64,000 nucleotides of DNA. It comes from an uncultured Alphaproteobacteria bacterium. Lineage in GTDB: Bacteria; Pseudomonadota; Alphaproteobacteria; JAPULJ01. Location: NCBI GenBank assembly GCA_964494065.1, contig CAZBRE010000004.1, forward strand, positions 911 to 64,910. The letters are read 5' to 3'. Both the position numbers and the translations under genes were made by a program. This document shows positions 7,721 to 53,421 of this stretch, one piece after another (the stretch's first letter is position 1; every line of letters begins with the position of its first letter). The notes beneath the pieces were generated by a model. That model was given only the letters and a program-made list of their open reading frames with translations. It had not been told where the DNA came from and did no database searches.

Positions 7721-8064
7721 CGCGGCCTCAAATCCCCTCCAATTCCGGATCACCCAAACCACGAACGCGCCCGTGCGCGAAACTCGCGGACGGACGGGCC
7801 CCCTCGGGAGCGGATCACAAAGCCAAGGCGATCCGGAAAGTCGTGCGGAATGTATGGAGGGGGCGGGGGGCTGTCAAGGCGGCCAACCCGCCTATCGACA
7901 TACCCCGATACCCCGCAATCCCGCACGATTCCTGGCCACCTAACAGTTTCTTAACCCCAGCGGTGGCCCAATGCCGGCGCCGGCAGATGCGCGTGGCCTC
8001 GAGGGTTCGGAGCCGCCACGCTGTCGCTCGCGCCAGAAGTCTGGGCTGAAGAAGGTTCGCCGCC

Positions 8065-12853: not shown

Positions 12854-12863
12854 CCGCGCCTGT

Positions 12864-12895
12864 TTGCAGGGGCGGGTTTGAAACCCGCCCCTGCA
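12864..12895. repeat. Palindromic GC hairpin repeat, family A (TGCAGGGGCGGGTTTGAAACCCGCCCCTGCA)
   Basis: Near-perfect 31-nt palindrome between convergent ftsY and the EAL gene. Related copies lie at 30378 and 53391. Confidence 0.65.
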
Positions 12896-12904
12896 ACGAC
12901 GCGT

Positions 12905-14107: not shown

Positions 14108-14176
14108 GGGACGGCGACGTTTATACCACCGTGTCACAAAAATGACTCGGTGTAGTTCCCTCGCGCACCCATCAGC

Positions 14177-14947
14177 TCAGCCGAAGGACAACCCCAGCCC
14201 GTCCCAGACGAGCTTTATCCCGGTGCCGAAGAGCAGCAGATAGGCGATGCGGTAGAAGATCGCCTCGGGCACCCGCTTGTGCAGCCAGACGCCGACCCAG
14301 ACCCCGAGCGGCGCCAGCGGCAGCAGCACCAGCGCGGTCGTCATGTTCGCCGTCGAAAGCTGGCCCAGCATCGCATAGGGCACCAGCTTCACGTAGTTGT
14401 AGACCATGAAGACGACCACCATCGTGCCCTGGTAGAGCGTCTTGTCCATCTTCTGGGGCAGCAGGTAGATCTGCGCCGGCGGGCTGCCGGCATGGGCGAC
14501 GAAGCTGGTGAAGCCGGCGACCGTGCTCCAGAACCCGCCGCGCCAGATATGCGGTTCGGTCGCCGGCATGTCGCGGCGGCCGAGGAGCGGCGCGCCGACC
14601 CAGCGATAGAGCGTGAAGGAGAGCGCGATCACGCCGACGATCAACCGCACGATGTCGTCGGTCAGATGATCGAAGCTGACCCAGCCGATGCCGATACCGA
14701 CCAGCCCCGCCACGATCATGATCGCAGTATTCCGGCGATGCCAGGTCTTGCGGTAGGCGACGAGCCCGGCGATGTCCATCAGGCAGAGGATCGGCAGCAT
14801 GATGGCGGCCGCCTGCACGGGCGAGATCAGGAGCGCCATGATCGGCACGGCAACCCCGCCCGCACCGCCGAAGCCGCCCTTCGATATGCCGGTCAGCATC
14901 ACCGCCGGCACCGCGGCGACATAGAACCAGGGATTGTCGATCAACAT
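14177..14947 (-). CDS. TauE/SafE family sulfite exporter-like membrane protein
   Basis: Internal ATG start (MLIDNPWF...). About 8 TM helices and glycine-rich GG..G motifs typical of TauE/SafE. Confidence 0.75.
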   Translation of the reverse strand: MLIDNPWFYVAAVPAVMLTGISKGGFGGAGGVAVPIMALLISPVQAAAIMLPILCLMDIAGLVAYRKTWHRRNTAIMIVAGLVGIGIGWVSFDHLTDDIVRLIVGVIALSFTLYRWVGAPLLGRRDMPATEPHIWRGGFWSTVAGFTSFVAHAGSPPAQIYLLPQKMDKTLYQGTMVVVFMVYNYVKLVPYAMLGQLSTANMTTALVLLPLAPLGVWVGVWLHKRVPEAIFYRIAYLLLFGTGIKLVWDGLGLSFG

Positions 14948-15053
14948 GGGCGCGCGTCTTCTCCGGAGCACCTTCGTCTGGCGGCCGCCGCCGCGCCTTT
15001 CGGCAGCCGCCGCCACTGGCGCACCAAACGCGCGCGGCCTATATACAGCCGTC

Positions 15054-15635
15054 ATGAACCCGATCGTCAAATTCTTAGTCGAGGTCGGCCCGCTCGCCGC
15101 CTTCTTCATCGCCTATTCGAGCTGGGGCGGCGAGGACGACAAGGCGAAGCTGATCGCCGCCACCGCGATCTTCATGGTCGCGATCGCGGGCTCGCTCGCG
15201 GTTTCGGTCTGGCTGGAGCGGCGCGTTCCGCTGATGCCGCTGGTCAGCGCCGCCGTGGTGTTCGTCTTCGGCGGCCTCACCCTCGCCCTCGACAGCGAGA
15301 TCTTCATCAAGATGAAGCCGACGATCATCAACGCGCTCTTCGCGGTGATCCTGTTCGCCGGGCTGGCGCTGGGCCGGCCGTTCCTCAAGCATCTCTTCGG
15401 CGCGGTGATGAACCTCGACGAGGTAGGCTGGAAGAAGCTTTCGATCCGCTGGGCGTTCTTTTTCTGCGCCGTGGCGGTGTTGAACGAGATCGTCTGGCGG
15501 AATTTCTCGACCGACCTCTGGGTCAACTTCAAGGTCTTCGGGATCCTGCCGCTGACGCTCGTCTTCGCGCTCTCGCAGACCCCGCTCATCCAGCGCCACA
15601 CGGTCCCCGAGGACGCGCCCGCCGGCAAAGGCTGA
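15054..15635 (+). CDS. yciB: Intracellular septation protein A (YciB/IspZ family)
   Basis: MNPIVKFLVEVGPLAAFFIAY... is a typical YciB N-terminus; 5 TM helices. Start at the internal ATG 15054. Confidence 0.8.
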   Translation: MNPIVKFLVEVGPLAAFFIAYSSWGGEDDKAKLIAATAIFMVAIAGSLAVSVWLERRVPLMPLVSAAVVFVFGGLTLALDSEIFIKMKPTIINALFAVILFAGLALGRPFLKHLFGAVMNLDEVGWKKLSIRWAFFFCAVAVLNEIVWRNFSTDLWVNFKVFGILPLTLVFALSQTPLIQRHTVPEDAPAGKG

Positions 15636-15647
15636 GCGCCGTCCCCG

Positions 15648-16181
15648 CTACCGCTTCCGCATGTCGCCGGTCTCGCCGGGCGGGTTGGTGCGCACGGTGT
15701 GGTCGCCCGAGGCTTCGCTCTCGCGGAAATGGTTCAGCACCCAATGCACGCTCGGGAAGGCGAGCTCGTCCCAGGGAATGTCGTCCCAGGCGAACAGCGC
15801 GACCTCCTGGCTTTCGGGCCCCGCGGCGAAATCGGGCGCGGGCAGATGCGCGCGGAAGAACATCTGCACCTGGCTGAGGCGCGGGATGTTGTAGACCGCG
15901 AGCAGCCGCTCGATCTCGATCCTGGCGCAGGCCTCCTCAAAGGCCTCGCGCGCCGCGCCCTCGGTGATCGTCTCGTTGAGCTCGAGATAGCCGGCAGGCA
16001 CCGTCCAGAAGCCGCGCCGCGGCTCGATCTCGCGGCGGCAGAGCAGAAACTGCTCCTCGAACGTGACCACCGAGCCGACGACGATGCGCGGATTGTCGTA
16101 CTGGATGAAGCCGCAATCGGGGCAGACCAGCCGCTCGCGGTCGTCGCCGTCGGGCACGGTGCGCACCGACGGGCCGCTCAT
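15648..16181 (-). CDS. NUDIX hydrolase with N-terminal zinc ribbon
   Basis: [12 protein letters not shown] zinc ribbon followed by Nudix box [21 protein letters not shown]. Start uncertain; alternatives at 16181 and 16235. Confidence 0.7.
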
Positions 16182-16379
16182 GTTGCCGCTCGCTGATTTA
16201 GGAGGCCGGGAATCTGCAGGTACGCGCGCGCTCATGACGCTAATCTGGCCAGCGACGCCGCGCCAGGCAAGTCTGCGGGCCTGCGCCGCGCCGCAGGCAC
16301 GCCAAATGTCTTGAATTGACACGCCCCGCGCGCGACCTTGGTGCGCTGCAACAACCAACGGCACCGAACCGCAAAACGC

Positions 16380-24856: not shown

Positions 24857-26707
24857 TCACACGATTTCGATCACATCGGGATCGCCGCCGGCATAGATCT
24901 TCGCAACCTGATCCGGGCGGTTGTCGAGCACGGCGCGCTGGTTCACGTAGCCCTTGTCGGTGATCTCGTTGGCGTCGATCGAGGGCGGCTCGGCCATGAT
25001 CAGCGCGTAAGCGAAGCGGCGGCTGTTGGCGCTGTTCTCCGCGTTATGCGTCTTCAGCCCCTCCTTGAGCGCCTCGCGGACCTCCGGCCGGGCGATCAGC
25101 TCGGGAAGCGGCAGATCGTCCCCGCCCTCCTTCACCAGCGAGGCGCAGCCCGCGGCGTTGGGGAAGATCAGCAGGCCAATCTCCTCGCGATCGTGGCCGG
25201 TCAGCACGGCGTCGGCGACCACCGGCCAGCCGGCGTCGATGGCCTTCAGGCGCAGCTCGCCCGCATGCACCCAGGTGCCGGACATGAGCTTGAAGTTCTC
25301 CGCCGTGCGCCCGTCGAAGACGAGGCCCTTGGCGGGATCGTCGGGGTCCTCGAGCTTGCCCGCATCGCCCATCTTGAAGAAGCCGTCCTCGTCGAAGGCC
25401 TCGTCGTTCAGCTCCGGCCGGCGCCAATAGCCGGGGGTCACGTTGGCGCCGCGCACGCGCAGCTCCATCTTGGTGCCCGAGGGCGTGAGCTTGATCTCGG
25501 TGCCGGGCAGCGGCACGCCGATCACGCCGGCTTTTTCGATCAGCCAGTGGACCGTGGCGGCCGCCGGCGCGGTTTCCGTTGAGCCCCAGGAGGAGATCAT
25601 CGGCACCCGGTCGCCGCGCGCCTTGATCGACAGCGCCTCGAGCTTGGCCCACAAGGCCGGCGGCAGGGCGGCGGCGGCGTAGAACAGCATGTCGAGATTG
25701 CTGAAGAAGTTGTTCCGCAGCTGCTCGTCCTTCTCGAGATACGGCGCCAGCACGTCGTAGCCGCGCGGCACGTTGAACGAGATCGTCGGCGCGACTTCTT
25801 TCAGGTTCGCCACCGTCTGCTCGATGATCCCCGGCGCCGGCTTGCCCGCATCGACCCAGAACTGGCCGCCATGCAGCAGCACGGTGTTGAAGTTATGACT
25901 TCCGCCGAAGGTGTGCGACCAGGGCAGCCAGTCGACCAGCACCGGCGGGCGCTCGTGGATGAACGGCCAGACCTGCCCCATGGCGGTCACGTTCGAGGTC
26001 AGCATCGACTGCAGCGTGATGACGCCCTTAGGCATGCCGGTCGAGCCCGAGGTGAAGAGCACCTTGGCGACCGTATCGGGCGTGATCGCTGCGTAAGCGT
26101 CGCGCACGGCCTGGCCCGGCTCGGTCTTCATGAGATCGGAGAGGAGCTCCTGGCCCGGCCCGGCATTGGCGCTCACCACCACGGCCGCGTCGCCGAGATC
26201 GAGCGCGGCGAAGGCCTTGGCGAAGCGCTCGCCGTCGGCGGCGTAGACGAGGCCCGGCGTCAGCAGACCGTGCACGTATTTGAGCTTGCCGTGATCCGTC
26301 GACATCAGCGAGTAGGCCTGGCTGATCGGCGAGGCCGGTACCCCAGCCTCCATCGCCGCGAGCTGGACCAGCGCGTTGTCGACCGCGTTGTCGGAGAGCA
26401 GCATTACCGGCCGCTCGGGCGTCACGCCCCTATCCAGGAAGGCCTGGCCCAACCGTCGTACCAGATCGCCGCCCTCGCCGTAGGTCACTTTCCGCCACGG
26501 CGCATCGCTCACTGGCGGGGCGGTCCGCTCGGCGATCCACAGCCGCTCCGGATCCTCCTTTTCCCAGCGATGCAGCATCGCCGGCACATGCGGAGGCGTC
26601 TCCGCCAGCGTGTACGGGGACCGGAAGATCATCGTGCCGTCGTCGCGCGTCTCGACGTTCACGCCCGGCGGCGCAAAGGAGATCTTGGCGAAAGGCGGCT
26701 TGTTCAT
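24857..26707 (-). CDS. AMP-dependent acyl-CoA synthetase, feruloyl-CoA-synthetase-like (long ~615 aa type)
   Basis: AMP-binding motifs [22 protein letters not shown] and SWGSTET. Paralog of 32370-34232. Confidence 0.8.
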   Translation of the reverse strand: MNKPPFAKISFAPPGVNVETRDDGTMIFRSPYTLAETPPHVPAMLHRWEKEDPERLWIAERTAPPVSDAPWRKVTYGEGGDLVRRLGQAFLDRGVTPERPVMLLSDNAVDNALVQLAAMEAGVPASPISQAYSLMSTDHGKLKYVHGLLTPGLVYAADGERFAKAFAALDLGDAAVVVSANAGPGQELLSDLMKTEPGQAVRDAYAAITPDTVAKVLFTSGSTGMPKGVITLQSMLTSNVTAMGQVWPFIHERPPVLVDWLPWSHTFGGSHNFNTVLLHGGQFWVDAGKPAPGIIEQTVANLKEVAPTISFNVPRGYDVLAPYLEKDEQLRNNFFSNLDMLFYAAAALPPALWAKLEALSIKARGDRVPMISSWGSTETAPAAATVHWLIEKAGVIGVPLPGTEIKLTPSGTKMELRVRGANVTPGYWRRPELNDEAFDEDGFFKMGDAGKLEDPDDPAKGLVFDGRTAENFKLMSGTWVHAGELRLKAIDAGWPVVADAVLTGHDREEIGLLIFPNAAGCASLVKEGGDDLPLPELIARPEVREALKEGLKTHNAENSANSRRFAYALIMAEPPSIDANEITDKGYVNQRAVLDNRPDQVAKIYAGGDPDVIEIV

Positions 26708-26828
26708 GCGGGTGCTCCTCCCCAGGGCGGCAGTCGCGGCAACGGTTTCCCCGTCGCTTCGTCGGCCACGATCTTAGCGCAGCCGCCCGGCGGAAAGAAA
26801 ACCCCTCGGTGCAGACAAATCCACGCAC

Positions 26829-26913
26829 GTCATTCCTGCGAAAGCGGGAATCCATGGAAGACGGCGGACACTGCCGCCCATGACTCTGGATCCCCGCTTT
26901 CGCGGGGATGACG
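26829..26913. repeat. Composite palindromic repeat, family B (two hairpin units GTCATTCCYGCGAAAGCGGGAATCC / GGATCCCCGCTTTCGCGGGGATGAC)
   Basis: Two inverted units at 26829-26853 and 26888-26913, each a 7-bp stem capped by GAAA or TTTC. Copies at 32174 and 34247. Confidence 0.7.
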
Positions 26914-26942
26914 AAGAAAAAATGCGGGGTTAGACGATCCGC

Positions 26943-27266
26943 CTAGTTCGGCTGGACGTGCTTGGGCAGGTAGCGCCCGTCCTCGGGTCCCTCGAACAGA
27001 TCGCCGATCTGGGGATGGCGGCAGGGCTGGCCGGTCTCGTCCTGCAGCAGGTTCTGCTCGGAGACGTAGGCGATGTAGGTGGTCTCGTCGTTCTCGGCGA
27101 GCAGGTGGTAGAAGGGCTGGTCCTTGCGCGGCCGCACTTCTTCGGGGATCGACTCCCACCATTCCTCGGTGTTGTTGAATTCCGGATCGACGTCGAAGAC
27201 CACCCCGCGGAACGGGTAGATCCGGTGTTTCACAACCGCGCCGATGGGGAATTTGGCTTCTCGCAT
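26943..27266 (-). CDS. hspQ: Heat shock protein HspQ (hemimethylated-DNA-binding YccV-like)
   Basis: FPIGAVVKHRIYPFRGVVFDVDPEF aligns with the E. coli HspQ N-terminus. Start at the internal ATG 27266. Confidence 0.75.
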   Translation of the reverse strand: MREAKFPIGAVVKHRIYPFRGVVFDVDPEFNNTEEWWESIPEEVRPRKDQPFYHLLAENDETTYIAYVSEQNLLQDETGQPCRHPQIGDLFEGPEDGRYLPKHVQPN

Positions 27267-27472
27267 CGAGAACTCCGGCCGTCGTGTGACGATCGAATGA
27301 CCTGTATCCGGCATGCGCCCCAACCTGCTCCATGGCGCCCGCGGGATCAAGCCTGCGCCCAGATATCCCTTGCCGCCCGCTTTTTTTGGACGAATATGAC
27401 TTTCGGCAGGGACGACCTGCATACTCTACGAGAATGGTTAAAAATCCATCCAAGGAGAGGAGATTTGCCGCC

Positions 27473-27955
27473 ATGGCCAAGGCAATGTTCGCAGCCGGCT
27501 GTTTCTGGGGCGTCGAGACGGCGTTTCGGCGCCTGAAGGGCGTGACAAACGTGACCGTGGGCTATTCGGGCGGTACCCTGGAAAACCCCACCTACGAGAA
27601 GGTCTGCAGCGGCATGACCGGCCACGCCGAGGTGGTGCTGGTCGAATACGACGAGGCCAAGGTCTCCTACGACGACCTGCTGGCGCTCTTCTTCCAGATC
27701 CACGACCCGACCCAGATGAACCGCCAGGGCCCCGATGTCGGCACCCAGTACCGCTCGGCGATCTTCTATTACGACGACGCACAGAAGGATGCGGCGCAGG
27801 CGATGAAGGATCAGGTGGGCGAAAGCGCGCGCCGCCCGGTCGCGACCGAGATCACCGCCGCCGGCCCCTTCTGGCCGGCCGAGGACTATCACCAGCAGTA
27901 CGAAGAAAAGCGCATGGGCGCCACCGCGCGCCTCTTCGGCGGCTGGAAACGGTAG
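27473..27955 (+). CDS. msrA: Peptide methionine sulfoxide reductase MsrA
   Basis: Catalytic GCFWG motif. AAGGAGAGGAG RBS upstream of ATG 27473. Confidence 0.85.
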   Translation: MAKAMFAAGCFWGVETAFRRLKGVTNVTVGYSGGTLENPTYEKVCSGMTGHAEVVLVEYDEAKVSYDDLLALFFQIHDPTQMNRQGPDVGTQYRSAIFYYDDAQKDAAQAMKDQVGESARRPVATEITAAGPFWPAEDYHQQYEEKRMGATARLFGGWKR

Positions 27956-27974
27956 CGTCCGAAGACGCGCGCGC

Positions 27975-28508
27975 ATGTCGGGGTTCGCCGTCAGCCATCT
28001 CGAGTTCCGCGTTCGCGACGCGGCGGCGATGGAAGCGTTCTACACGGGCGCGCTCGGCTTCACGGTGACCGACCGGGGCGACGGACCGGACGGCATGGTG
28101 TTCCTCAGCCGCAGCGCCGACGAACATCATCAGCTCGTGCTCAACCCGGTCGGGGACAAGGCCGGCTCGCCCGACCGGCTCGACCATGTCGCGTTCCGGG
28201 TGGACTCGCTCGAGCGGCTTCGCCGCTTTCACGATGCCTTGAAGGACGCGAACGCCGCGCGGCTGGAGACCGTGTCGCACGGCAACACCTGGTCGGTCTA
28301 TTTCCTCGACCCCGAAGGCAACCGGCTCGAGCTCTTCGTCGACACGCCGTGGCATGTCGACCAGCCGACGCGCTTCGCCATCGACCTGTCGCTGCCCGAC
28401 GACGCGCTCGCCGCGGCGACCGAGGCGGAGATCCGCAAGCGCAAGGGCTTCCGCGGCGTCGATGCCTGGCGGAACGAACACCGTGAGCGGATCGACGCAC
28501 CGGGCTGA
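27975..28508 (+). CDS. VOC (glyoxalase/bleomycin-resistance/dioxygenase) family protein
   Basis: VOC-type pattern with the LDHVAFRVDS metal-binding region. Confidence 0.7.
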   Translation: MSGFAVSHLEFRVRDAAAMEAFYTGALGFTVTDRGDGPDGMVFLSRSADEHHQLVLNPVGDKAGSPDRLDHVAFRVDSLERLRRFHDALKDANAARLETVSHGNTWSVYFLDPEGNRLELFVDTPWHVDQPTRFAIDLSLPDDALAAATEAEIRKRKGFRGVDAWRNEHRERIDAPG

Positions 28509-28584
28509 CGCGGGCATCAATTCCGCTCCCGCGCAAAATGGTCTAGCCTTGGGATCGACAAGAAACGATCCGGGGGAGGCGGCC

Positions 28585-30231
28585 ATGTCGGCGCTCAAAA
28601 AGAAATTCTGGGGCTGGGGCTTCGAGGGCGAGACCGTCGGCGAGGACGAGGCGAAGCTGGTCTTCGCCGAGATCGTCCGCCGCCACGGCGAGATCGCCGA
28701 GGCCGCCGCCGACGTGCCTAAGGTCAGCGACTTCGATCTCCGCGCCCCGCGTGTCCAGGCGACGGGCGCGGCGGCAAAGTGCGTCACCGACGACCCGCAC
28801 GAGCGGCTGCTGCACGCCTATGGCAAGTCCTTCCCCGACACGGTGCGCATGTTCCGCCGCGAGGTGCCCGAGCCGCCCGACCTCGTCGCCTATCCGGAAA
28901 CGGAAGACGACATCGTCGCGCTCATGGATTGGGCCGACGGGGCGAATGTCGCGGTCATACCCTTCGGCGGCGGCACCTCGGTTTGCGGCGGCGTCGAGCC
29001 GGCGGTGGGCGACGCTTACGCCGGCACGCTCTCACTCGATCTCACCCGGCTCGACAAAGTCCTCGAGGTCGACAAGACGAGCCGCGCCGCGCGCATCCAG
29101 GCGGGGGCCGCCTGCCCGATCTTCGAGCGGCAGCTGAAGGAGCACGGGCTCACCCTCCGCCATTTCCCGCAGAGCTTCCTCCACGCCACGCTGGGCGGCA
29201 TGATCGCGACCCGCTCGGGCGGGCACTACGCGACGCTCTACACGCATATCGACGACTTCGTGGAATCGACCCGGACCGTCACGCCGTCCGGCGTCATGGA
29301 GAGCTTCCGCCTGCCCGGCTCGGGCGCGGGCCCCAGCCCCGACCGCATGATGATCGGCTCCGAAGGCATCCTCGGCGTTATCACCGAGGCCTGGATGCGC
29401 GTGCAGGACCTGCCCAGGCACCGCGCCGCCGTCTCGGTCGGCTTCCCCGACATCTATGCCGGTGCGGAGGCGATCCGCGCGCTCAGCCAGGCCTGGCTCT
29501 TCCCCTCGAACTGCCGCCTGCTCGACGCCGAGGAGGCGCGGAACACCGGCGCGGGCGACGGCAACGCCGCACTCCTCGTACTCTCCTTCGAGTCGGCCGA
29601 CCACCCGGTCGAGCCCTGGATGGCGCGCGCCCTCGAGCTCGTGCGCGATCATGGCGGCCGCTACGACGAGGCGGCGCTCGCCGACAAGGAGAGCCACAAG
29701 AAGGACGCCGCCGGCGCCTGGCGCAACGCCTTCATCCGCATGCCGTACTATCGTGAGGTTCTGACCCCACGGGGCGTCATCTCCGACACCTTCGAGACCT
29801 CGATCACCTGGGAGCGTTTCCCCGCCTTCCACGACGCGATCAAGACGCGCATGCGCGATGTGATCAAAGACGTGACCGGCAAGCCTGGCTCGGTGACATG
29901 CCGCTTCACCCATGTCTATCCCGACGGTCCCGCGCCCTACTTCACCTATTCGGCGCTCGGCGCGTGGGACGGGTTGATGGAGCAGTGGCGGACGATCAAG
30001 GCGGCGGCGAACGAGGTGGTCGTCTCCAACGGCGGCACCGTCACCCACCACCACGCCGTCGGCCGCGACCACAGACCGGGCGGCTACGACAAGCAGCGGC
30101 CGGAGGTTTTCGCGCGAGCGCTGGCCGGCGCCAAGGCGGCGGTCGATCCCAACGGGATTTTGAATCCAGGCGTGCTGATCGATCCGGTTGGCAAGAGCGT
30201 CGGCACGACGGGGGCGATGGCGGGGATGTAA
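28585..30231 (+). CDS. FAD-linked oxidase (alkyl-DHAP synthase / D-lactate dehydrogenase-like)
   Basis: FAD_binding_4 region (AVIPFGGGTSVCGG) with an AGPS-like C-terminal domain. GGGGGAGG RBS before ATG 28585. Confidence 0.75.
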   Translation: MSALKKKFWGWGFEGETVGEDEAKLVFAEIVRRHGEIAEAAADVPKVSDFDLRAPRVQATGAAAKCVTDDPHERLLHAYGKSFPDTVRMFRREVPEPPDLVAYPETEDDIVALMDWADGANVAVIPFGGGTSVCGGVEPAVGDAYAGTLSLDLTRLDKVLEVDKTSRAARIQAGAACPIFERQLKEHGLTLRHFPQSFLHATLGGMIATRSGGHYATLYTHIDDFVESTRTVTPSGVMESFRLPGSGAGPSPDRMMIGSEGILGVITEAWMRVQDLPRHRAAVSVGFPDIYAGAEAIRALSQAWLFPSNCRLLDAEEARNTGAGDGNAALLVLSFESADHPVEPWMARALELVRDHGGRYDEAALADKESHKKDAAGAWRNAFIRMPYYREVLTPRGVISDTFETSITWERFPAFHDAIKTRMRDVIKDVTGKPGSVTCRFTHVYPDGPAPYFTYSALGAWDGLMEQWRTIKAAANEVVVSNGGTVTHHHAVGRDHRPGGYDKQRPEVFARALAGAKAAVDPNGILNPGVLIDPVGKSVGTTGAMAGM

Positions 30232-30377
30232 CCTCCCCTCCAGTGTCACCCCGGACGGAGCGAAGCGACGAGCCGGGGTCCATCGGGCAGAGTGATCAAG
30301 CTCAAACGGCGCGCCGTTGGCACGACCGTATGGATCCCGGGTCAAGCCCGGGATGACAGTCTTGTTGAGTGAATAAT

Positions 30378-30409
30378 TGTAGGGGCGGATTTCAAACCCG
30401 CCCCTACAA
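30378..30409. repeat. Palindromic GC hairpin repeat, family A
   Basis: TTGTAGGGGCGGATTTCAAACCCGCCCCTACAA sits between the convergent FAD-oxidase and SBP-like genes. Confidence 0.65.
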
Positions 30410-30433
30410 ATACACAACCGACCGCACCCACCC

Positions 30434-31180
30434 TCACGCCGCCACGAGAAGCTTCCCCGTCACCCCGTGCTTGTCGATCAGCTCGGCGACGAGGCCGCTC
30501 GCCTTCGCCTCCTCGACGAAATCCTTGAGAAATGCGGCAGCGGCCGTCTTGTGCTTCTGGGTGCCGATTGCCTGCTGCACGGCGGTGAAGCGGCCGTCGA
30601 GGATGCGCGCGCCGGGCAGCTTCTGAAGGTTGTCCATGAGCGGCGGCCGCAAGCCCGCCAGCGCATCGAACGGTTCCGACATGAAGAGATCGACCGTGCC
30701 GTCGAGGCCCTGGCCGCGCACCAGCTCGGCATGCTTGAGCGTGCGCGAGAGGTAGAGGTCGTAGGCGCTGCGCCCCGAGACGGCAATGCGCATGCCCGGC
30801 CGGTCGACCTCCTCGATCGTCCGGATCGGCGAGCCGGCCGGAACGAGATATGTCGCCTCGATCTCGGTATAGGCGGGCGTGAAGGCGATGGTCTCGGCGC
30901 GCTTCGCTTCGGCGGCGATGAGGCCGATGTCCCAGCTGTCGGTCACGGCCGCATCGGCAAGCTCGCCCGGCGAGGGGAAGATGATGTATTCGATGCCGAG
31001 GCCAAGCCGCTCGGCGATCGCGCGCGCCAGATCGGGCGAGACGCCTTCCGGATCGCCCGAGGCGCTTCGGCCCGTCACCAGCAGCACGTTGGAGAGGTTG
31101 ATCCCGGCGCGCAGCACGCCGGAGGGCGCAAGCTCGGCGGCAATGTCAGCGGCACTTTCGGTGGGCGTATCGGCAGGCAT
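30434..31180 (-). CDS. Substrate-binding-domain protein (SBP_bac_3-like) lacking an obvious signal peptide
   Basis: Periplasmic-binding-protein type II fold motifs. The N-terminus is acidic and non-hydrophobic. Confidence 0.6.
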   Translation of the reverse strand: MPADTPTESAADIAAELAPSGVLRAGINLSNVLLVTGRSASGDPEGVSPDLARAIAERLGLGIEYIIFPSPGELADAAVTDSWDIGLIAAEAKRAETIAFTPAYTEIEATYLVPAGSPIRTIEEVDRPGMRIAVSGRSAYDLYLSRTLKHAELVRGQGLDGTVDLFMSEPFDALAGLRPPLMDNLQKLPGARILDGRFTAVQQAIGTQKHKTAAAAFLKDFVEEAKASGLVAELIDKHGVTGKLLVAA

Positions 31181-31276
31181 GAGGGCGTCCGTGGGGTCGG
31201 TTTCCGATCCCTGCCCTCTATCACGCCCGCCCGCTCAAGGCCATGCGTCTCAAAGGAACCGCGGGTCGAGCCCGCC

Positions 31277-32011
31277 CTACTCGCCGAAGACCGCGCGCAG
31301 CACGAGCACGCTGTCGCGCTTCGGCTGCCTGAGGGTCTCCTCGAAGAAGGCGACCGCGAAGGCGCAGGCCTTCTCCTGGTCCTTGGCTTTGAGCCCGGGC
31401 TTCCATTGCACCAGGTTCTCGCGGCCCAGCCGCTCGGCGAGCCGCGCCAGCACCGCGTTGAGCGGCCGGCGATAGGCGTTGGGATCGGGCTTGCTGCGTT
31501 TCTGGCCCTTGCGGCCGTTGCGGCGCGACTGCACCACGATCTGGGTCATCGCCACGCCCATCCGGCGCCGCTCGATCCGGGTGAGCTTGCGGAAGATCCG
31601 CGCCCGGTCGTTGGACGAGCCCGCCATGTAGTCGTAGCAGTCCTCATACGAGCCGGCGCGCAGCACCGACAGGATGTCGCGGGTCATCCGGGCGAAGCCG
31701 ATCACCGCGGCGTCGCTGGTCCGCGTGTAGTAGTAGGGGAAGTAATTCCAGCCCATGCGCGAGCCGAACTCGATCGAGGCCACCAGCATCGACGAGCGGC
31801 CGCCAAAGCGCCGCGCCTCCTCGAGTTCGCGGATGAAGTTGGCGCGCTCGTGCGGATGGTCCTCGAAGAGGATGCGGAAATAGGCGCTCTTGCGCTCCAT
31901 CTGCGCCACGATCCGCTCGGCGATCTGGGCCCGCTCGGCGAGCTGCGGGGCGGCCTGCACCGGGCCGACCAGCGCAAGTCCGAGGATGAGCAGCGCGGCC
32001 AGCACGGCCAT
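31277..32011 (-). CDS. Hypothetical exported protein
   Basis: Signal peptide MAVLAALLILGLALVGPVQA from the internal ATG 32011. No recognisable family. Confidence 0.45.
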   Translation of the reverse strand: MAVLAALLILGLALVGPVQAAPQLAERAQIAERIVAQMERKSAYFRILFEDHPHERANFIRELEEARRFGGRSSMLVASIEFGSRMGWNYFPYYYTRTSDAAVIGFARMTRDILSVLRAGSYEDCYDYMAGSSNDRARIFRKLTRIERRRMGVAMTQIVVQSRRNGRKGQKRSKPDPNAYRRPLNAVLARLAERLGRENLVQWKPGLKAKDQEKACAFAVAFFEETLRQPKRDSVLVLRAVFGE

Positions 32012-32173
32012 GCGGCGGCGGGGGCTGGCGGAGCCGTCGCGCGTCCAGTCGAAGATACCCAGAAATCTGGAGAATATCTGCATGGCCCGGCCCTCCTGGC
32101 GGATGCCCGAGGCTTACAGGAGGGGGACGAATATTCGCTTAATGTCGGCAGCGGGCGAGGCCGGCAGCTGATC

Positions 32174-32257
32174 GTCATCCCAACGAAAGCGGGGATCCAT
32201 GCCGGATCCCGAACTCCGGCGCGAGATCGCTGGATTCCCGCTTTCGCGGGAATGACG
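32174..32257. repeat. Composite palindromic repeat, family B
   Basis: Units GTCATCCCAACGAAAGCGGGGATCC (32174-32198) and GGATTCCCGCTTTCGCGGGAATGACG (32232-32257). Confidence 0.7.
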
Positions 32258-32369
32258 ATGAAGGAAATGAGCGTATTTTTTTACATATACGTAAATTCCC
32301 CAGTTGACGCCCGCCGCGATTCCGTCTGACATTCTCCCGACAGCCTCGTCCCGTGGGGAGGGGACAATC

Positions 32370-34232
32370 ATGGCGAGCGCCGCAAACGCACCGTTCATCG
32401 ATCTGCCCTTCGCTAAGCCGAAGGTGACGCGGACCAGGCGCGACGACGGCAGCACCGTGCTCGCCTCCGGCTACGCGCTCGCCGACTACCCGCCGCACAT
32501 GCTCGCCTATCTCGACCGCTGGGCCGAGGCGGCGCCCGACCGCGTCTTCCTCGCCGAGCGCGACGCGGAGGACAACTGGCGCGAACTCACCTATGCCGAC
32601 GCCGCCGAGCGCTCCGGCCGTCTGGCCCAGACGCTGCTCGACCGCGGGCACAGCGCCGCGCGCCCGATCATGATGCTGTGCGACGCCACGGTGAACATGG
32701 GCGTCCTGAAGCTGGCGGCGATGCGCGTCGGCATTCCCTTTGTGCCCGTCTCGCCGGCCTATTCGCTGATGTCGGAGACCTTCGAGAAGCTGCGCGGCGT
32801 GGTCGAGATGATCCGCCCCGGCCTCGTCTATGTGTCCAAGCAGGCGATGTTCGCCCGCGCGCTCGAGGCGGCGGGACTGCGCGAGGTGCCGCTGATCGCC
32901 GACGAGCCTGCGGACGGCGCGGCCACCGACAACATCCAAAGCTTCGAGAGCTGGCTTAGGCCGCCGCCAGGCCCTGCCGTTGCCGAAGCCTTCGCGGGCG
33001 TCGGCCCCGACACGGTCGCCAAGATCCTGCTCACCTCGGGCTCGACCGGCACGCCCAAAGGCGTGCTGAATCCGCAACGCATGCTCTGCTCGAACGGCGT
33101 TGCGGTCGACCAGCTCTGGCCCTTCCTCGGCGCGCGGCCGCCGGTGATGGTCGACTGGCTGCCCTGGTCGCACACCTTCGGCACCAACTTCAATCTCGGC
33201 CAGATCCTGCGCCACGGCGGCTCGCTCTATATCGACGCCGGCAAGCCCGCGCCGGGCCGCATCGAGACGACGCTGAAGAACCTGCGCGCGGTGCGGCCGA
33301 ACCTGCTCTACAACGTGCCGCGCGGCTTCGACATGCTGCTGCCGCATCTGGAGGCCGACGACGACTTCGCCGCGCATGTCTTCGGCGATCTCGACATCAT
33401 CTTCTACGCCGGCGCCGCGCTGCCGAAGACCCTGTGGGACCGGCTCGAGGCGCTCTCGGTCTTCGTGCGCGGCGCGCGCGTGCCGATCCTCTCCTCGCTC
33501 GGCGCGACGGAAACAGGCCCCGTCGCCACGCTCTCCCATTGGGGGCCGGAGATCGCCAACAGCATCGGCCTGCCGATCCCCGGCACCGAGGTGAAGCTGG
33601 TGCCGAGCGGCGACAAGACCGAGATCCGCGTGCGCGGGCCCAATGTCACGCCCGGCTATTTCGATGCGCCCGACCTCACCGCCGCCGCCTTCGACGAGGA
33701 GGACTTCTTCCGCCTGGGCGATGCGGTGACATACATCGATGAGGCCAAGCCCGAGCGCGGCCTCCTCTTCGATGGCCGCGTGGCGGAGAACTTCAAGCTG
33801 CTGACCGGCACCTGGGTCGCGGCGGGGCTCCTGCGCATCGCCGCGATAAGCGCCGGTGCGCCGGTGATCCAGGACGCCGTCGTCACCGGCCACGATCGCG
33901 AGGAGGTCGGATTACTGATCTTCCCCAATCCCGCCGGTTGCCGCGCGGTCGCCGGCGACGTCCCCGAGGACGAGCCGCTTGATGCGCTGATCGGGCGCGA
34001 GCCCGTGCGCAGCGCGCTTGCCGCGGGCCTCGCCCGCCACAATTCCGAAAACCCCGGCAGCAGCACGCGCATCGCCCGCGCGCTCATCATGACCGAGCCG
34101 CCCTCGATCGACGGCAACGAAATCACCGACAAGGGGTACCTGAACCAGCTAGCCGTCCTGGCGCGGCGCGCAGAGTTGGTGGAACGGCTTTACGCGGAGC
34201 CGGCGGCGGAGGATGTGGTGTTGATCGCGTAG
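32370..34232 (+). CDS. AMP-dependent acyl-CoA synthetase, feruloyl-CoA-synthetase-like (paralog 2)
   Basis: [22 protein letters not shown] and SLGATETGP motifs. GGGGAGGGG RBS before ATG 32370. Confidence 0.8.
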
Positions 34233-34246
34233 CGCCTAACCACCTC

Positions 34247-34333
34247 GTCATTCCCGCGAAAGCGGGAATCCAGAAGCATCAGGGCGCCAATCTTTCCGGC
34301 TTCCCTGGACCCCCGCTTTCGCGGGGGTGACGG
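34247..34333. repeat. Composite palindromic repeat, family B
   Basis: Units GTCATTCCCGCGAAAGCGGGAATCC (34247-34271) and GGACCCCCGCTTTCGCGGGGGTGACGG (34307-34333). Confidence 0.7.
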
Positions 34334-34363: not shown

Positions 34364-36166
34364 CTAAAACGCCGCTTCCTCCAGCTCCATCAGCGGCTTC
34401 GCGCCGCCGGTCATCGTCGCAAACAGCCCCGCCGTCTCGGGCAGCACGCGCGCCATGTAGAAGCGCGCGGTGGCGAGCTTGGCTTTGTAGAAATCCTCCT
34501 CGCCGTTCGCGCCGGCCTTCAGCTTGTCGCGCGCGATCTTCGCCATGCGCGCCCACATATAGCCGATGGCGACGAAGCCGAAGGCGCGGAGATACTCGCT
34601 CGCCGCGGCGGCCGCGTCGTTCTGATCCTTCATGCCGGCCTCGGCGAGCCACAGCGTCGTCTGCTGCAGCTTGGCGAATGATTTCATCAGCGGCGTGACG
34701 AACTCCGCCATCTCCGGATCGGAGGCGTTCGCCTCGATGAACTTCTGCACGGGGTGGAAGAAGCGGCGCAGGAACCGGCCCATATGCGCCGGCAGCTTGC
34801 GGCCGATCAGGTCGAGCGCCTGAATGCCGTTGGTGCCCTCGTAGAGCTGGGTGATGCGCGCGTCACGCACGAACTGCTCGATGCCGTGCTCGGAAATGTA
34901 GCCGTGGCCGCCATAGACCTGGACGGCGAGGTTCGCCGCCTCGAAGCCGTGATCGGTGAAGAAGGCCTTGATGATCGGCGTCGTCAGCTCGATCCAGTCG
35001 GAGGCCTCTTCGCGCACCGCCTCGTCGGGATGCTTCAGCATCTTGTCGATCTCGTAGCCCGTCCAATAGGCAAAGGCGCGCGCACCCTCGGTCAGCGAGC
35101 GGGCGCGCAGCAGCATGCGCCGCACGTCGGGATGGACGATGATCGGATCGGCCGGCTTGTCGGGCGCTTCGGCGCCCTTGAGCCCGCGGCCCTGCACGCG
35201 CTCCTTGGCGTAGTCGACGGCATTCTGGTAGGCGACCTCGGCGAGGCCGAGCCCCTGCATGCCGACGCCGAGGCGCGCGGCGTTCATCATCGTGAACATA
35301 TGCGCCATGCCCTTGTGCGGCTGGCCGACCAGCCAGCCCTTGGCCTCCTCGAAGTTGATGACGCAGGTCGACGACGCCTTGATGCCCATCTTGTGCTCGA
35401 TCGCGCCGCACATGACGCCGTTGCGCGGCCCCGCGACGGTCTCGCCGTTCTCCTGCTTGGGCAGGAACTTCGGCACCAGGAAGAGCGAGATGCCGCGCAC
35501 GCCCTCGGGCGCGTCGGGCAGCTTCGCCAGCACCAGATGGACGATGTTGTCCGTCAGGTCGTGCTCGCCGGCGGAGATGAAGATCTTGGTGCCGGTGATC
35601 TTGTAGGAGCCGTCGGTATCGGGCACCGCCTTGGTGCGGATGAGACCGAGATCGGTCCCGCAATGAGGCTCGGTGAGGCACATCGTGCCCGACCAGGTGC
35701 CGTCGACCAGCTTCGGCAAGTACTCGTCCTTGAGCGCGTCGGTCGCATGGTGCTCGATCGCGTTGTAGGCGCCGAGCGAAAGCCCCGGATACATGCCGAA
35801 GGACATGTTGGCCGAGCAGATCATCTCCTCGAAGACGAAGTTGATGACCTTGGGCAGGCCCTGACCGCCATATTTCGGATCGCAGGCGATGCCGCACCAG
35901 CCCGACTCGGCGAAAGTCTTGTACGCTTCCTTGAAGCCCTCCGGTGTACGTACGACACCGTTCTCGTACGTACAGCCCTCCTGGTCGCCCGAATAGTTGA
36001 GCGGCTGCAGCTCGTTCTCGCAGAGCTTGGCCGCTTCTTCGAGGACCGCATCGATGATGTCGGGCGTCGCCTCCTCGTAGCCTGGCATCTCGGCCAGCTT
36101 CTCGACACCGAGCATCTCGTGCAGCACGAAGCGCATCTCGCGCAAGGGAGCCTTGTAGGTCGCCAT
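34364..36166 (-). CDS. Acyl-CoA dehydrogenase (long ~600 aa FadE-type)
   Basis: ACAD N, middle and C-terminal domains plus a C-terminal extension. Confidence 0.85.
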   Translation of the reverse strand: MATYKAPLREMRFVLHEMLGVEKLAEMPGYEEATPDIIDAVLEEAAKLCENELQPLNYSGDQEGCTYENGVVRTPEGFKEAYKTFAESGWCGIACDPKYGGQGLPKVINFVFEEMICSANMSFGMYPGLSLGAYNAIEHHATDALKDEYLPKLVDGTWSGTMCLTEPHCGTDLGLIRTKAVPDTDGSYKITGTKIFISAGEHDLTDNIVHLVLAKLPDAPEGVRGISLFLVPKFLPKQENGETVAGPRNGVMCGAIEHKMGIKASSTCVINFEEAKGWLVGQPHKGMAHMFTMMNAARLGVGMQGLGLAEVAYQNAVDYAKERVQGRGLKGAEAPDKPADPIIVHPDVRRMLLRARSLTEGARAFAYWTGYEIDKMLKHPDEAVREEASDWIELTTPIIKAFFTDHGFEAANLAVQVYGGHGYISEHGIEQFVRDARITQLYEGTNGIQALDLIGRKLPAHMGRFLRRFFHPVQKFIEANASDPEMAEFVTPLMKSFAKLQQTTLWLAEAGMKDQNDAAAAASEYLRAFGFVAIGYMWARMAKIARDKLKAGANGEEDFYKAKLATARFYMARVLPETAGLFATMTGGAKPLMELEEAAF

Positions 36167-44572: not shown

Positions 44573-45337
44573 ATGCGCATGGTTCAGCGCCTTCTTTTTT
44601 CGCCCCGCTGGCTCTTGTGCCTTGCCGGAGCCCTCGCGATCGCCAACGCTGCCTTCGCCCAGTCGGCGGGAGCGGGCGAGAGCGGTGACAGCCAGGGCAC
44701 CACAGGCCGGAACCGCGCCGACGAGCGCATACTCGATTTCGTCTGCCGCTTCGAGATCGCCAGCGACGACAGCGTGGTGATCACCGATACGATACGCGTG
44801 GTCGCCGCGGGCAAACAGATCAGGCGCGGGATCTACCGCGATCTGCCCCTGCGCCAGGACAACCAACATGGCGGCTGGAGACGCGTCGACGTCAAGGTTC
44901 TCGAGATAAAGCGCGACGGCAAGCCCGACGCCAACCACGCCGTGATCCGCGGCAACTTCATGCGGCTCTATGTCGGGCGCAAGGACTATTTCCTGCCGCA
45001 CGGGGTCCACACCTACACGATCAAATACCGCTTGAGCCCGTGGGTCCTGCCGCATGCCGACAATCACATGGTCCTTTGGGAGGCGACCGCCGCGAGCTGG
45101 CCGTTCCCGATCGAGCAGGCGAGCGCTACCGTTGTCTCGCCGCCGGGCACGCGCCTACTCGGTGGCAGCGGCGATACCGGCGCGCCGGGCAGGCGCACCG
45201 CGAACTATACCATGCGCCTAACCGGGCCGCGCACGATGAGCTTCCGCGCTACCAAACCTTTGCGTCCGGGGGAGCGTCTTCTCTTTGTGGTGGGCTTCAC
45301 CAAGCACCCCTCCCGCATTCCGGCTTGGCGCAAATAG
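44573..45337 (+). CDS. DUF2207 N-terminal-domain-only protein (truncated paralog of the next gene)
   Basis: Signal peptide. Clear similarity to residues ~90-330 of the downstream DUF2207 protein (IRVVAAGKQIRRGIYRDLPL, IEQASATVV). Ends before the TM region. Confidence 0.6.
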   Translation: MRMVQRLLFSPRWLLCLAGALAIANAAFAQSAGAGESGDSQGTTGRNRADERILDFVCRFEIASDDSVVITDTIRVVAAGKQIRRGIYRDLPLRQDNQHGGWRRVDVKVLEIKRDGKPDANHAVIRGNFMRLYVGRKDYFLPHGVHTYTIKYRLSPWVLPHADNHMVLWEATAASWPFPIEQASATVVSPPGTRLLGGSGDTGAPGRRTANYTMRLTGPRTMSFRATKPLRPGERLLFVVGFTKHPSRIPAWRK

Positions 45338-45369: not shown

Positions 45370-47433
45370 ATGACTCAGCGCCACATCGCACCATTCGGCT
45401 GGCTCCTCTGCCTTGCAGGATTTCTCATGTTTGCCACCGCGGCGCTCGCCCAATCGAGCATGGAGGAGGGCGGCGGCGACCGCGGCAGTGGCGTCGACCG
45501 TGGAAGCGGCAGCAGCGGGGGCGGCGGCGCGGAAAGCGAGGGCGGTGGCTTCGGAAGCGGCGGGGCCGCACGTGGTGGCGGGGCATCGCGGCCCGTCACC
45601 AACCTCTCCTACGAGCGCATCGTCAACTACGACAGCCGCGTCGAGGTGAAGAAGGATGCGAGCGTGATCGTCACCGAGACGATCCGCGTGGTCGCGCTCG
45701 GCCGGCAGATCAGGCGCGGCATCTACCGCGACCTGCCGTTACGCTACCGTACGCCCAACGGCGCGCGCATGACGGTCGGCTTCAAGATTCTTGAAATAAA
45801 AAGAGACGGAAAAACAGAGGCTTACCATACGGAGAGCCGCTCGAACGGCATCCGCATCTATGTCGGCCGAAAGAGCTATTTCCTGCCGCGCGGCGTCTAC
45901 ACCTACACCATCAAATACCGGATGAGCCGCATTGTCGGCTTCTTTGACGGCTACGACGAGATCTACTGGAACGTGACCGGCAACGGCTGGGTCTTCGCGA
46001 TCGAGCAGGCGAGCGCCACGGTCGTGCTGCCCGCGGGCGCCAGCGTTCGCCAAAGCATCGCCTATACCGGCCCCCAGGGCGCGCGCGGCACGGCGTATTC
46101 CAAAAGCCCGGGCGGCGCGGGCGAAATGGTGTTCCGCACGACCCGGCGCTTGCGCGCCCGCGAAGGGCTGTCGGTCGCGGTCGGCTTCACCAAAGGTATC
46201 GTGGTCCCGCCCTCGAGCACGGAGAAGATGGGCTGGTTCCTCGCCGACAACGCGCCGGCGATCCTCGGCTTCGTCGGCCTCGTCGTGCTCGGGATCTTCT
46301 ATCTGTTCGCCTGGATCCGGGTCGGCCGCGATCCGGCCAAGGGCGCCATCATCCCCTTGTACGAGCCGCCCAAGGGCATCTCGCCCGCCGCCGCGCGCTT
46401 CATCCGCCGCATGGGCTTCGACAACAAGGCCTTCGCCGCCGCCGTCGTCAACATGGCGGTCAAGGGCTATCTCACCATCAGCGAGGACAAGAAAAAGAAG
46501 TTCACGCTCGAGCGCATCGACGAGGACAAGTCGAAGCTGTCACAGGGCGAGCGCGATATCGCCAAGAAGCTCTTCCGTTCGAAGGCGAAGATCAAGCTCG
46601 AGCAGTCGAACCACTCCAAGATCAGCGGCGCGCTGAACGAGCTCAAGGCCTATCTCCGCCTGGAATTCGAGAAGGCCTACTTCCTCACCAACCGCGGCTA
46701 TGTCTTCGCCGGGCTCGGCATCACCATCGTTGCCGTTCTCGTCGCCCTGGTGACGGCAGACGAAGCCGTCGGGGCGGTCTTCATCGGCATCTGGCTCAGC
46801 GTCTGGACGATGGGGGTCTTCTTCCTCGGCATGCAGGTCTGGAAGTCCTGGACCTCGGGCAGCTATGCGATGGGCGTCGTCATGACGCTTTTCTTCATTC
46901 CCTTCTTCGGCGGCGAGGTCGCGGGCGCCATCGGGCTCGGTGCGATCATCGACTGGCTGGGCGTCGTCATGATCCTGGCGATGGGTTTCGTGAACGCGCT
47001 GTTCTTCCACCTGATGCGCGCGCCGACGCTCATGGGGCGCAAGGTGATGGATCAGCTCGAAGGCTTCCGGATGTATCTTTCGGTCGCCGAGAAGGACCGC
47101 ATGAACCTGATGAACCCGCCGGCCGAAACGCCCGAGCTCTTCGAGAAGTTCCTCCCCTACGCGCTGGCGCTCGACGTCGAGCAGAAATGGAGCGAGCGCT
47201 TCGCCGATGTGCTGAAGGCCGCGCGCATGGCCGACGGCACGCCCTATCATCCCTACTGGTATCACGGCACGGCCTGGTCGACGCTGGGCGCGACGGGGCT
47301 CGCGAGCGGCCTGGGGGGCGCCTTCAGCAGCGCCATTTCCTCCTCCTCGACGGCACCGGGCTCCTCTTCGGGGTCGGGCGGCGGCGGCTTTTCCGGCGGC
47401 GGTGGTGGCGGCGGCGGTGGCGGCGGCTGGTGA
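45370..47433 (+). CDS. DUF2207 domain-containing membrane protein
   Basis: Signal peptide, extracytoplasmic DUF2207 domain, multi-TM C-terminal region, and a poly-Gly C-terminal tail. Confidence 0.75.
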   Translation: MTQRHIAPFGWLLCLAGFLMFATAALAQSSMEEGGGDRGSGVDRGSGSSGGGGAESEGGGFGSGGAARGGGASRPVTNLSYERIVNYDSRVEVKKDASVIVTETIRVVALGRQIRRGIYRDLPLRYRTPNGARMTVGFKILEIKRDGKTEAYHTESRSNGIRIYVGRKSYFLPRGVYTYTIKYRMSRIVGFFDGYDEIYWNVTGNGWVFAIEQASATVVLPAGASVRQSIAYTGPQGARGTAYSKSPGGAGEMVFRTTRRLRAREGLSVAVGFTKGIVVPPSSTEKMGWFLADNAPAILGFVGLVVLGIFYLFAWIRVGRDPAKGAIIPLYEPPKGISPAAARFIRRMGFDNKAFAAAVVNMAVKGYLTISEDKKKKFTLERIDEDKSKLSQGERDIAKKLFRSKAKIKLEQSNHSKISGALNELKAYLRLEFEKAYFLTNRGYVFAGLGITIVAVLVALVTADEAVGAVFIGIWLSVWTMGVFFLGMQVWKSWTSGSYAMGVVMTLFFIPFFGGEVAGAIGLGAIIDWLGVVMILAMGFVNALFFHLMRAPTLMGRKVMDQLEGFRMYLSVAEKDRMNLMNPPAETPELFEKFLPYALALDVEQKWSERFADVLKAARMADGTPYHPYWYHGTAWSTLGATGLASGLGGAFSSAISSSSTAPGSSSGSGGGGFSGGGGGGGGGGGW

Positions 47434-53363: not shown

Positions 53364-53390
53364 GTACCGGCTGAGAATACTTGTAGGGGC

Positions 53391-53421
53391 GGGTTTGAAA
53401 CCCGCCCCTACAAAAAGATTG
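53391..53421. repeat. Palindromic GC hairpin repeat, family A
   Basis: TGTAGGGGCGGGTTTGAAACCCGCCCCTACA sits between the convergent histidine kinase and fadD-like gene. Confidence 0.65.

Follow-up and report, generated by a model that had tools for sequence, protein, structure and literature searches.

Repetitive extragenic palindromic (REP) sequences of the CGTC-1 family were described by Di Nocera, De Gregorio and Rocco (2013, BMC Genomics 14:522; PMC3733652) as CGTC-tagged units, with TGTC and CCTC as variants of the tag, that have an 8-bp stem starting with AT, a 4-nt loop and a short unpaired CCA tail. In the same work it was reported that the units occur mostly as 'HH' dimers, with the tags outside and spacers of 20-100 nt that may hold small stem-loops, and that they are intergenic, lie near 3' ends, are found mainly in Alphaproteobacteria, are co-resident with GTAG REPs and can be equated with dRS3 of Neisseria and RPE-6 of Rickettsia. 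In a recent study (Chenal et al. 2025, Nat Commun 16:2388; PMC11893778) the Neisseria repeat, with the NTS consensus CGTCATTCCCGCGMAVGCGGGAATCYRG, was found to flank ssnA, which encodes a 94-aa GIY-YIG protein (cd10448); across bacteria at least one motif accompanied the gene in 71% of cases and motifs stood on both sides in 42%. Biochemistry done on four Ssn homologues established that SsnA binds the hairpin only as single-stranded DNA (ssDNA), cleaves the motif strand alone, at a distance of a few nucleotides on the 5' side, and is inactive on double-stranded DNA and RNA, and in N. meningitidis SsnA was shown to lower transformation by NTS-containing DNA (PMC11893778). The authors remarked that NTS-ssnA-NTS resembles an insertion sequence and called its role outside Neisseria open (PMC11893778). 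Here we analyse three ~85-nt elements that lie beside two paralogous ligase genes in a stretch of 64,000 nt, hereafter the window, from an uncultured alphaproteobacterium (assembly GCA_964494065.1, contig CAZBRE010000004.1, positions 911 to 64,910 of the forward strand). We conclude that they are ordinary copies of a published and very widespread hairpin repeat (CGTC-1 REP = dRS3/NTS = RPE-6 = 'Ssn-related motif', SRM), of which both the repeat family and the partner enzyme have already been described.

The three 85-nt elements are real and are made up of six 28-nt units, which form three inverted pairs at 26828-26913 (copy 1), 32173-32257 (copy 2) and 34246-34332 (copy 3). At up to 3 mismatches GTCAYYCCNGCGAAAGCGGGRATCC matched at 26829+, 26888-, 32174+, 32232-, 34247+ and 34307-, with no other match in the 64 kb, and when 5 mismatches were allowed no further units appeared within the window; dinucleotide shuffles gave 0.01 matches against the six observed, and none of 100 shuffles reached six. 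When the elements were aligned in both orientations, a C before GTCA and an A after the core were found in all six units, so that the consensus unit reads CGTC, ATTCCCGC, GAAA, GCGGGAAT and CCA, that is, a 4-nt tag, an 8-bp stem enclosing a 4-nt loop, and a 3-nt tail. The initial annotation of this DNA had already placed three two-unit elements here, with hairpin units, a GAAA loop and a separation of ~33 nt, all of which was borne out (34, 33 and 35 nt separate the 25-nt cores), whereas its 25-nt unit is in fact 28 nt long, its 7-bp stem has 8 bp, and unit 32174+ is degenerate, with ATCCCAAC not fully paired. Translation of the unit does yield the peptides VIPAKAGIQ and RHSRESGNP, and the overlapping open reading frames (ORFs) that carry them are artefacts.

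In copy 1 the left unit (26828..26855, +) reads CGTC-ATTCCTGC-GAAA-GCGGGAAT-CCAT and has one T.G stem position and 2 mismatches to the NTS consensus. It is followed by the stretch between the 28-nt units (26856..26885), which can form a small stem of its own, GGCGG..CCGCC, and shares no sequence with the other spacers, and then by the right unit (26886..26913, -), CGTC-ATCCCCGC-GAAA-GCGGGGAT-CCAG, in which a T-A pair has been replaced by C-G in a compensatory change and which fits the published SRM pattern. The left unit of copy 2 (32173..32200, +), CGTC-ATCCCAAC-GAAA-GCGGGGAT-CCAT, is the degenerate one, with two unpaired stem positions, and fails the SRM pattern; its right partner (32230..32257, -), CGTCATTCCCGCGAAAGCGGGAATCCAG, is an exact match to the NTS consensus, as is the left unit of copy 3 (34246..34273, +). 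The right unit of copy 3 (34305..34332, -), CGTC-ACCCCCGC-GAAA-GCGGGGGT-CCAG, carries a double compensatory change, and the stem is thus kept by paired changes in both the ATCCCCGC/GCGGGGAT and the ACCCCCGC/GCGGGGGT variants. The CGTC tag and the CCA tail are present in 6/6 units, the loop is GAAA, and the stem starts with AT in five units and with AC in one. The NTS consensus CGTCATTCCCGCGMAVGCGGGAATCYRG was found twice exactly and twice with 2 mismatches in the window, against 0 in shuffles, and the SRM pattern HGTCWYN(0-2)YYVSBRHN(0-5)WNVSBRGN(0-2)RNCYNB gave 5 matches (4/6 units and a further site at 30330-30358) against 0.77 in 100 dinucleotide shuffles.

In each of the three pairs, all of which are intergenic, the two units face one another with the CGTC tags outside, and the spacers have no sequence in common, although each holds a small internal stem. 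In folding calculations each whole element gave, for both strands, a single long hairpin of -55 to -59 kcal/mol (z -6.5 to -8.8), and a single unit alone gave -11 to -14 kcal/mol. The suggestion that these are REP- or miniature inverted-repeat transposable element-like sequences which had proliferated in intergenic DNA was therefore well founded, as the anatomy of the unit is that of CGTC-1 REP / NTS / SRM. Integron attC sites, dif/Xer sites, CRISPR repeats and a tRNA-like 3' CCA minihelix were dropped as candidate identities on sequence grounds.

In the protein collection searched, the proteins closest to ligase 2 are 99% (same species), 91% and 87% identical to it, followed by proteins at 69% or less, and the contigs of the relatives are syntenic with the window. 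Contig L126, from a metagenome-assembled genome (MAG) labelled Alphaproteobacteria (GCA_035527975.1), carries p450, ligase 1, YccV, MsrA, FAD oxidase, solute-binding protein (SBP) and ligase 2 genes, its two ligases being 90% (ligase 1) and 87% (ligase 2) identical to those of the window, and contig L130 carries SBP, ligase 2 (91%) and acyl-CoA dehydrogenase (ACAD) genes. Identical pairs were found in the same-species metagenome contigs (L001-L004, L131). The 20 kb of L126 held no unit, either at up to 5 mismatches or by the SRM pattern, and L130 held none of the three pairs, so that the comparison with related strains proposed in the initial annotation shows the pairs to be present in same-species contigs and absent from the orthologous spacers of both relatives. 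At the place of copy 1 the DNA of L126 is wholly different, consisting of CTCTGTG-type tandem repeats and other palindromes, and in L130 two GTAG REPs take the place of the CGTC pair between ligase 2 and ACAD. From the sequences compared, three gains in the lineage of the window would be the most economical history, as against at least five losses.

Two differences in gene content were also observed around these sites. An ORF at 31277-32083 (-) encodes a 268-aa product that starts like a signal peptide and gave no Pfam hit. Neither L126 nor L130 has this ORF, the SBP gene there directly adjoining ligase 2, and the extra segment of the window is bordered by copy 2. In L126 a ~6-kb block (10531-16251) with a branched-chain-type ABC transporter and a glutathione S-transferase-like gene stands between ligase 2 and ACAD, and both the window and L130 are without it. 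Since the block occurs in L126 only, the ligase 2/ACAD neighbourhood appears to be prone to rearrangement.

The 64 kb of the source genome hold, beside the six units, one variant of a sister subtype. This seventh, single unit (30330..30358, -) reads TGTC-ATCCCGGG-CTTGA-CCCGGGAT-CCAT, with a 5-nt loop (TGTCATCCCGGGCTTGACCCGGGATCCA), fits the SRM pattern and sits in the convergent spacer between the FAD oxidase and SBP genes, adjoining a GTAG REP. An identical TGTC unit was observed at the orthologous site of L130 (1466-1494, -), the 91% relative, and not in the 87% relative. The classical GTAG-tagged REP, GTAGGGGCGGGTTTSAAACCCGCCCCTAC, is separate from the CGTC family and presumably corresponds to the repeats called 'family A' in the initial annotation; it occurs in the window at 12866-12894, 30379-30407 and 53383-53411. 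For its copy in the FAD oxidase/SBP spacer, orthologous counterparts were seen in L126 (7333) and L130 (1515, 1625), and in that spacer the GTAG REP is therefore older than the CGTC pairs.

When the 25-nt core was scanned in one genome per species, at least 120 stretches were listed, among them stretches from Alpha-, Beta- and Gammaproteobacteria, Desulfobacterota, Chloroflexota, candidate phyla radiation (CPR) groups, Omnitrophota, Acidobacteriota, Planctomycetota, Nitrospirota and a Rickettsia endosymbiont. Most of them are MAGs, so individual taxon assignments carry a risk of misbinning, and several are complete chromosomes. Among the matches listed, the two stem positions left free in the search were complementary in 151 of 157 exact units, where the marginals would predict 116, the CCA tail was present in 145 of the 157, and the base preceding GTCA was C in 91 and T in 58. 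The tags pointed outward in 70 of 97 close pairs, with spacers of 5-131 nt, and the unit adjoined unrelated genes in many phyla. Viral contigs contributed a further 81 stretches from 2.9 million contigs, which were included in the screen of bracketed ORFs described below.

Several unusual arrangements were noticed in these stretches. In a Parcubacteria MAG a repeat pair lies in frame inside a putative tgt-like ORF (L015 6519-7439, -), where it is translated as ...VIPAKAGIQ...LDSRLRGND..., and in a Rickettsia endosymbiont a copy lies in frame inside a long ORF which is putatively aminoacyl-tRNA-synthetase-like (L078 859-4269, -). Unlike the usual pairs, the units of an Ignavibacterium MAG form head-to-tail arrays with a 36-nt period (L122 5790-5922), and those of Candidatus Omnitrophus magneticus form alternating arrays (L094 2-435).

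The search for a partner gene was carried out on the same material. All-against-all clustering of 853 ORFs from the at least 120 repeat-bearing stretches yielded only common families as recurrent neighbours (histidine kinases, ABC ATPases, clamp-loader AAA+ proteins and HflK/C) and missed the GIY-YIG gene. When 1.7 Mb of loci were screened for ORFs with a unit on either side, 23 candidates emerged, and among these was a gene for a GIY-YIG protein of ~97 aa. With this protein as a tblastn query six copies were found in the 1.7 Mb, five of them within 4-136 nt of a unit and three, from a gammaproteobacterial MAG, an Anaerolineales MAG and an IMG/VR contig, bracketed with the tags outward. The proteins belong to PF01541 (GIY-YIG; E 1e-14 to 1e-17), and the nearest solved structures are the UPF0213 proteins 1zg2 and 1ywl.

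In the reciprocal test 80 metagenome loci were sampled by the protein alone, using an alignment of five GIY-YIG proteins (~95 aa). A tagged hairpin was found within 200 nt of the gene on both sides in 55 of the loci, on one side in 20 and on neither in 5, and the density of hairpins was 5.6 per kb near the gene vs 0.56 per kb further off. The nearest hairpins lay at a median of 20 and 23.5 nt from the gene, and their orientation was +/- in 40 of the 55 loci with hairpins on both sides. The stems vary between loci, whereas the two flanking units of one locus usually match, and in some loci (L227, L288) the gene is flanked by units identical to the consensus unit of the window. The hairpin-ssn-hairpin layout was thus recovered independently here, and it reproduces the finding already published by Chenal et al. 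2025. One ssn-like gene, in a Peribacteria MAG (L121 6647-6931, -), has an in-frame stop and is bracketed by an AT-rich hairpin, CGTCATTCCCAACTTGATTGGGAATCC; to judge from its reading frame, it may be a pseudogene.

Taken together, we consider it probable that the three elements are tags-outward CGTC-1 REP/SRM pairs, non-autonomous copies newly gained in this lineage, and not a device that regulates the ligases. For the published homologues it is established that the hairpin (8-bp stem, GAAA loop), flanked by CGTC at the 5' side and CC(A) at the 3' side, is in ssDNA the binding site of Ssn, a ~95-aa single-domain GIY-YIG endonuclease that cuts the ssDNA a few nucleotides 5' of the motif. From its geometry, a tags-outward pair should present one correctly oriented motif per strand, and since each strand carries one motif, two cut sites would fall just outside the pair on opposite strands, like the ends of an insertion sequence. 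The master element would have the same shape, with the nuclease gene replacing the spacer (NTS-ssn-NTS), and Ssn is assumed to be encoded elsewhere in the source genome. The pairs would then have spread as non-autonomous copies, gained after the split from the closest sampled relatives and placed where insertions are tolerated, that is, after stop codons and distal to conserved promoter blocks. They would be neutral or nearly so for the flanking genes, and side effects on mRNA 3' ends, or on recombination or transformation of the flanked DNA, are possible. If this explanation is right, the genome should contain hundreds of SRMs and at least one ssn gene bracketed by CGTCATTCCCGCGAAAGCGGGAATCCA units.

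A number of points weigh against this explanation. Transposition of SRMs is only a hypothesis in Chenal et al. and has never been demonstrated (PMC11893778), tblastn found no ssn homologue in the 64-kb window, and in published work a change of stem sequence with the hairpin kept abolished the activity of Nm SsnA, so that units of the ATC and ACC types may be inert or may depend on a different Ssn. The spacers are unrelated, which argues against recent copying of whole pairs from one another, and the absence of the pairs in relatives could in principle reflect losses rather than gains. The confinement of the three pairs to 7.5 kb of the 64 kb is mildly unusual (p roughly 0.04, a post hoc value).

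That the spread is still going on, with the pairs being fresh-gain tags-outward SRM heterodimers (an ATT-type unit joined to an ATC- or ACC-type one) mobilised in trans by the Ssn GIY-YIG nuclease, is a tentative idea which we are inclined to doubt; it rests on the near-consensus units and on their absence from relatives at 87-91% protein identity. If it were true, Ssn would be a new kind of ssDNA transposition enzyme and not only a nuclease that restricts transformation, and ligase 2, with a pair on either side, would represent an early form of the 'NTS-gene-NTS' arrangement around Neisseria surface-protein genes. As it stands, the window provides a clean case of lineage-specific presence and absence of SRM pairs between close relatives. 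Such evidence has still been missing for the question raised by the 2013 and 2025 studies, namely whether CGTC/NTS repeats are mobile and are moved by Ssn, which a single 64-kb window does not answer.

The position of the repeats relative to the flanking genes permits other explanations. Copy 1 lies between a YccV/HspQ-like gene (hspQ, 26943-27422, -) and ligase 1, an AMP-binding protein (24857-26707, -), and is separated by 29 nt from the hspQ stop and by 120 nt from the ligase 1 ATG at 26707. Further along are the FAD oxidase (28354-30231, +) and SBP (30434-31180, -) genes, and copy 2 is placed between divergent genes, 112 nt before the ATG of ligase 2 (32370-34232, +). Copy 3 lies, as the initial annotation had stated, between the convergent ligase 2 and ACAD (34364-36166, -) genes, at 13 and 31 nt from their stops.

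These distances would be compatible with a role mainly at the RNA level, in which copy 1 would serve hspQ, and copy 3 both ligase 2 and ACAD, by stabilising the 3' end or by acting as a terminator-like hairpin. The sites of copies 1 and 3 fit the published bias of CGTC-1 to positions just after 3' ends (PMC3733652), and the long folds form on both strands. However, no T-run follows the repeats, copy 2 is between divergent genes, the relatives do without the repeats, and SsnA does not bind RNA (PMC11893778). In the promoter and terminator scan no sigma-70-like promoter was found, and the single weak terminator-like site is inside copy 2. We regard such a role as unlikely, and it may be a by-product of the repeat, which would not exclude the explanation by newly gained pairs. 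At gathering thresholds Rfam gave nothing at the repeats; its sole gathering-score match in the window was an ffh small RNA (RF01793) at 7760-7811 (-), with 36.5 bits against a cut-off of 35. Elsewhere in the window two direct repeats of ~150 nt, 74-75% identical and 890 nt apart, were noted (44711-45038 and 45601-45928), which probably represent tandem paralogous genes.

It was proposed in the initial annotation that the repeats might be a shared cis-regulatory or RNA-structure module. Such a module, in the DNA or in the 5'-UTR RNA, would co-regulate the two feruloyl-CoA-synthase-like ligase paralogs. Copies 1 and 2 do lie upstream of both ligases, at the similar gaps given above, and their hairpins are very stable. 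The claim that they have the same orientation relative to each gene holds narrowly, as both copies have their ATT-type unit on the side of the gene and their ATC-type unit on the far side, a 1-in-2 coincidence. In L126 a block of ~109 nt next to the ligase 1 start (26708-26816) is almost identical and far better kept than the rest of the spacer, and copy 1 begins 11 nt beyond it. Likewise, a block upstream of ligase 2 (~32276-32369), which holds TTTACATATACGTAAA and TTGAC...GTCTGACATT, is kept in both L126 and L130, and copy 2 begins 18 nt beyond it. The pairs are absent from orthologous upstream regions in which the proximal 95-110 nt are conserved, and the conserved DNA lies between repeat and gene. 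As the two blocks are of similar length, and insertions would survive only outside these ~95-110 nt, the similar distances to the ligases would be accounted for.

The two upstream blocks are furthermore unrelated to each other. The paralogs are only 52% identical, as compared with 90% between ligase 1 and its L126 orthologue, and both are present in the repeat-free L126, so that the ligase duplication must long predate the repeats. Copy 3 is located at a 3' end, unrelated genes are flanked by the unit in many phyla, and copy 2, being distal to the conserved TTGAC/operator-like block, is probably outside the ligase 2 transcript. A module shared by the ligases is thus not supported and seems very improbable, the pairs being missing from the two closest relatives, in which the paralogs and the gene order are kept. 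The ligase 2 upstream region itself (~32276-32340) shows a near-palindrome, TTTACATATACGTAAA, followed by TTGAC...GTCTGACATT, an operator/promoter-like arrangement; this block, shared with L126 and L130, is probably the real control region of ligase 2 and possibly a repressor site. For annotation a false lead is hereby removed, as the hairpins upstream of the ligases represent a pan-bacterial selfish or domesticated repeat and no shared regulatory element.

It might also be thought that the pairs are REPINs, that is, REP doublets mobilised by RAYT, a Y1 transposase of the IS200/IS605 type, since the architecture of two inverted REPs with a spacer is the same and classical GTAG REPs are also present in the window. 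The tag, however, is CGTC and not GTAG (GT[AG]G), the spacers differ between copies, unlike those of typical REPINs, and in the 2013 survey no tyrosine transposase gene flanked by CGTC units was found (PMC3733652). The unit-bracketed gene encodes a GIY-YIG nuclease, which was the sole nuclease among the 23 bracketed ORFs from 1.7 Mb; no transposase-like ORF was seen among them, as judged by reading the translations and not by a Pfam scan. We hold the REPIN explanation to be highly unlikely. Chance resemblance or a leftover of the ligase duplication, which have nothing in their favour beyond the position next to the paralogs, are refuted by the six matches against 0.01 expected, the unrelated flanks and spacers, and the presence of both paralogs in the repeat-free L126, and need hardly be entertained.

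Among known systems, REPIN/RAYT systems, reportedly the subject of Bertels and Rainey (2011) and Nunvar (2010), resemble the present one in having inverted REP doublets as non-autonomous units, a single-copy enzyme gene that is bracketed, and recognition of a hairpin in ssDNA. They differ in the GTAG tag, in the HUH Y1 transposase fold as opposed to GIY-YIG, and in spacers which are usually conserved. Rickettsia RPEs are noted for in-frame insertion into genes, whereas the three pairs described here are all intergenic, even though RPE-6 has been equated with CGTC-1. The comparison with NTS/SRM is limited by the lack of an ssn gene in the window and by the host, which is an uncultured alphaproteobacterium and not a Neisseria. 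The likeness lies in the two units that equal the NTS consensus exactly, in the four of six that fit the SRM pattern, in the bracketing of ligase 2 by repeats, which resembles 'NTS-gene-NTS', and in the hairpin-ssn-hairpin layout recovered in the 80 loci sampled by protein first. CGTC-1 is matched in the CGTC tag, the 8-bp stem beginning with AT, the 4-nt loop, the CCA tail, the tags-outward pairing, the spacer length within 20-100 nt with small stem-loops, the intergenic location near 3' ends, the alphaproteobacterial host and the presence of GTAG REPs beside it. It differs in that all three pairs are heterodimers (ATT-type with ATC- or ACC-type), as against the mostly homodimeric pairs of PMC3733652, and in that the host range found here, mostly from MAGs, extends beyond the five phyla of that survey to CPR, Chloroflexota, Omnitrophota, Acidobacteriota, Planctomycetota and others.

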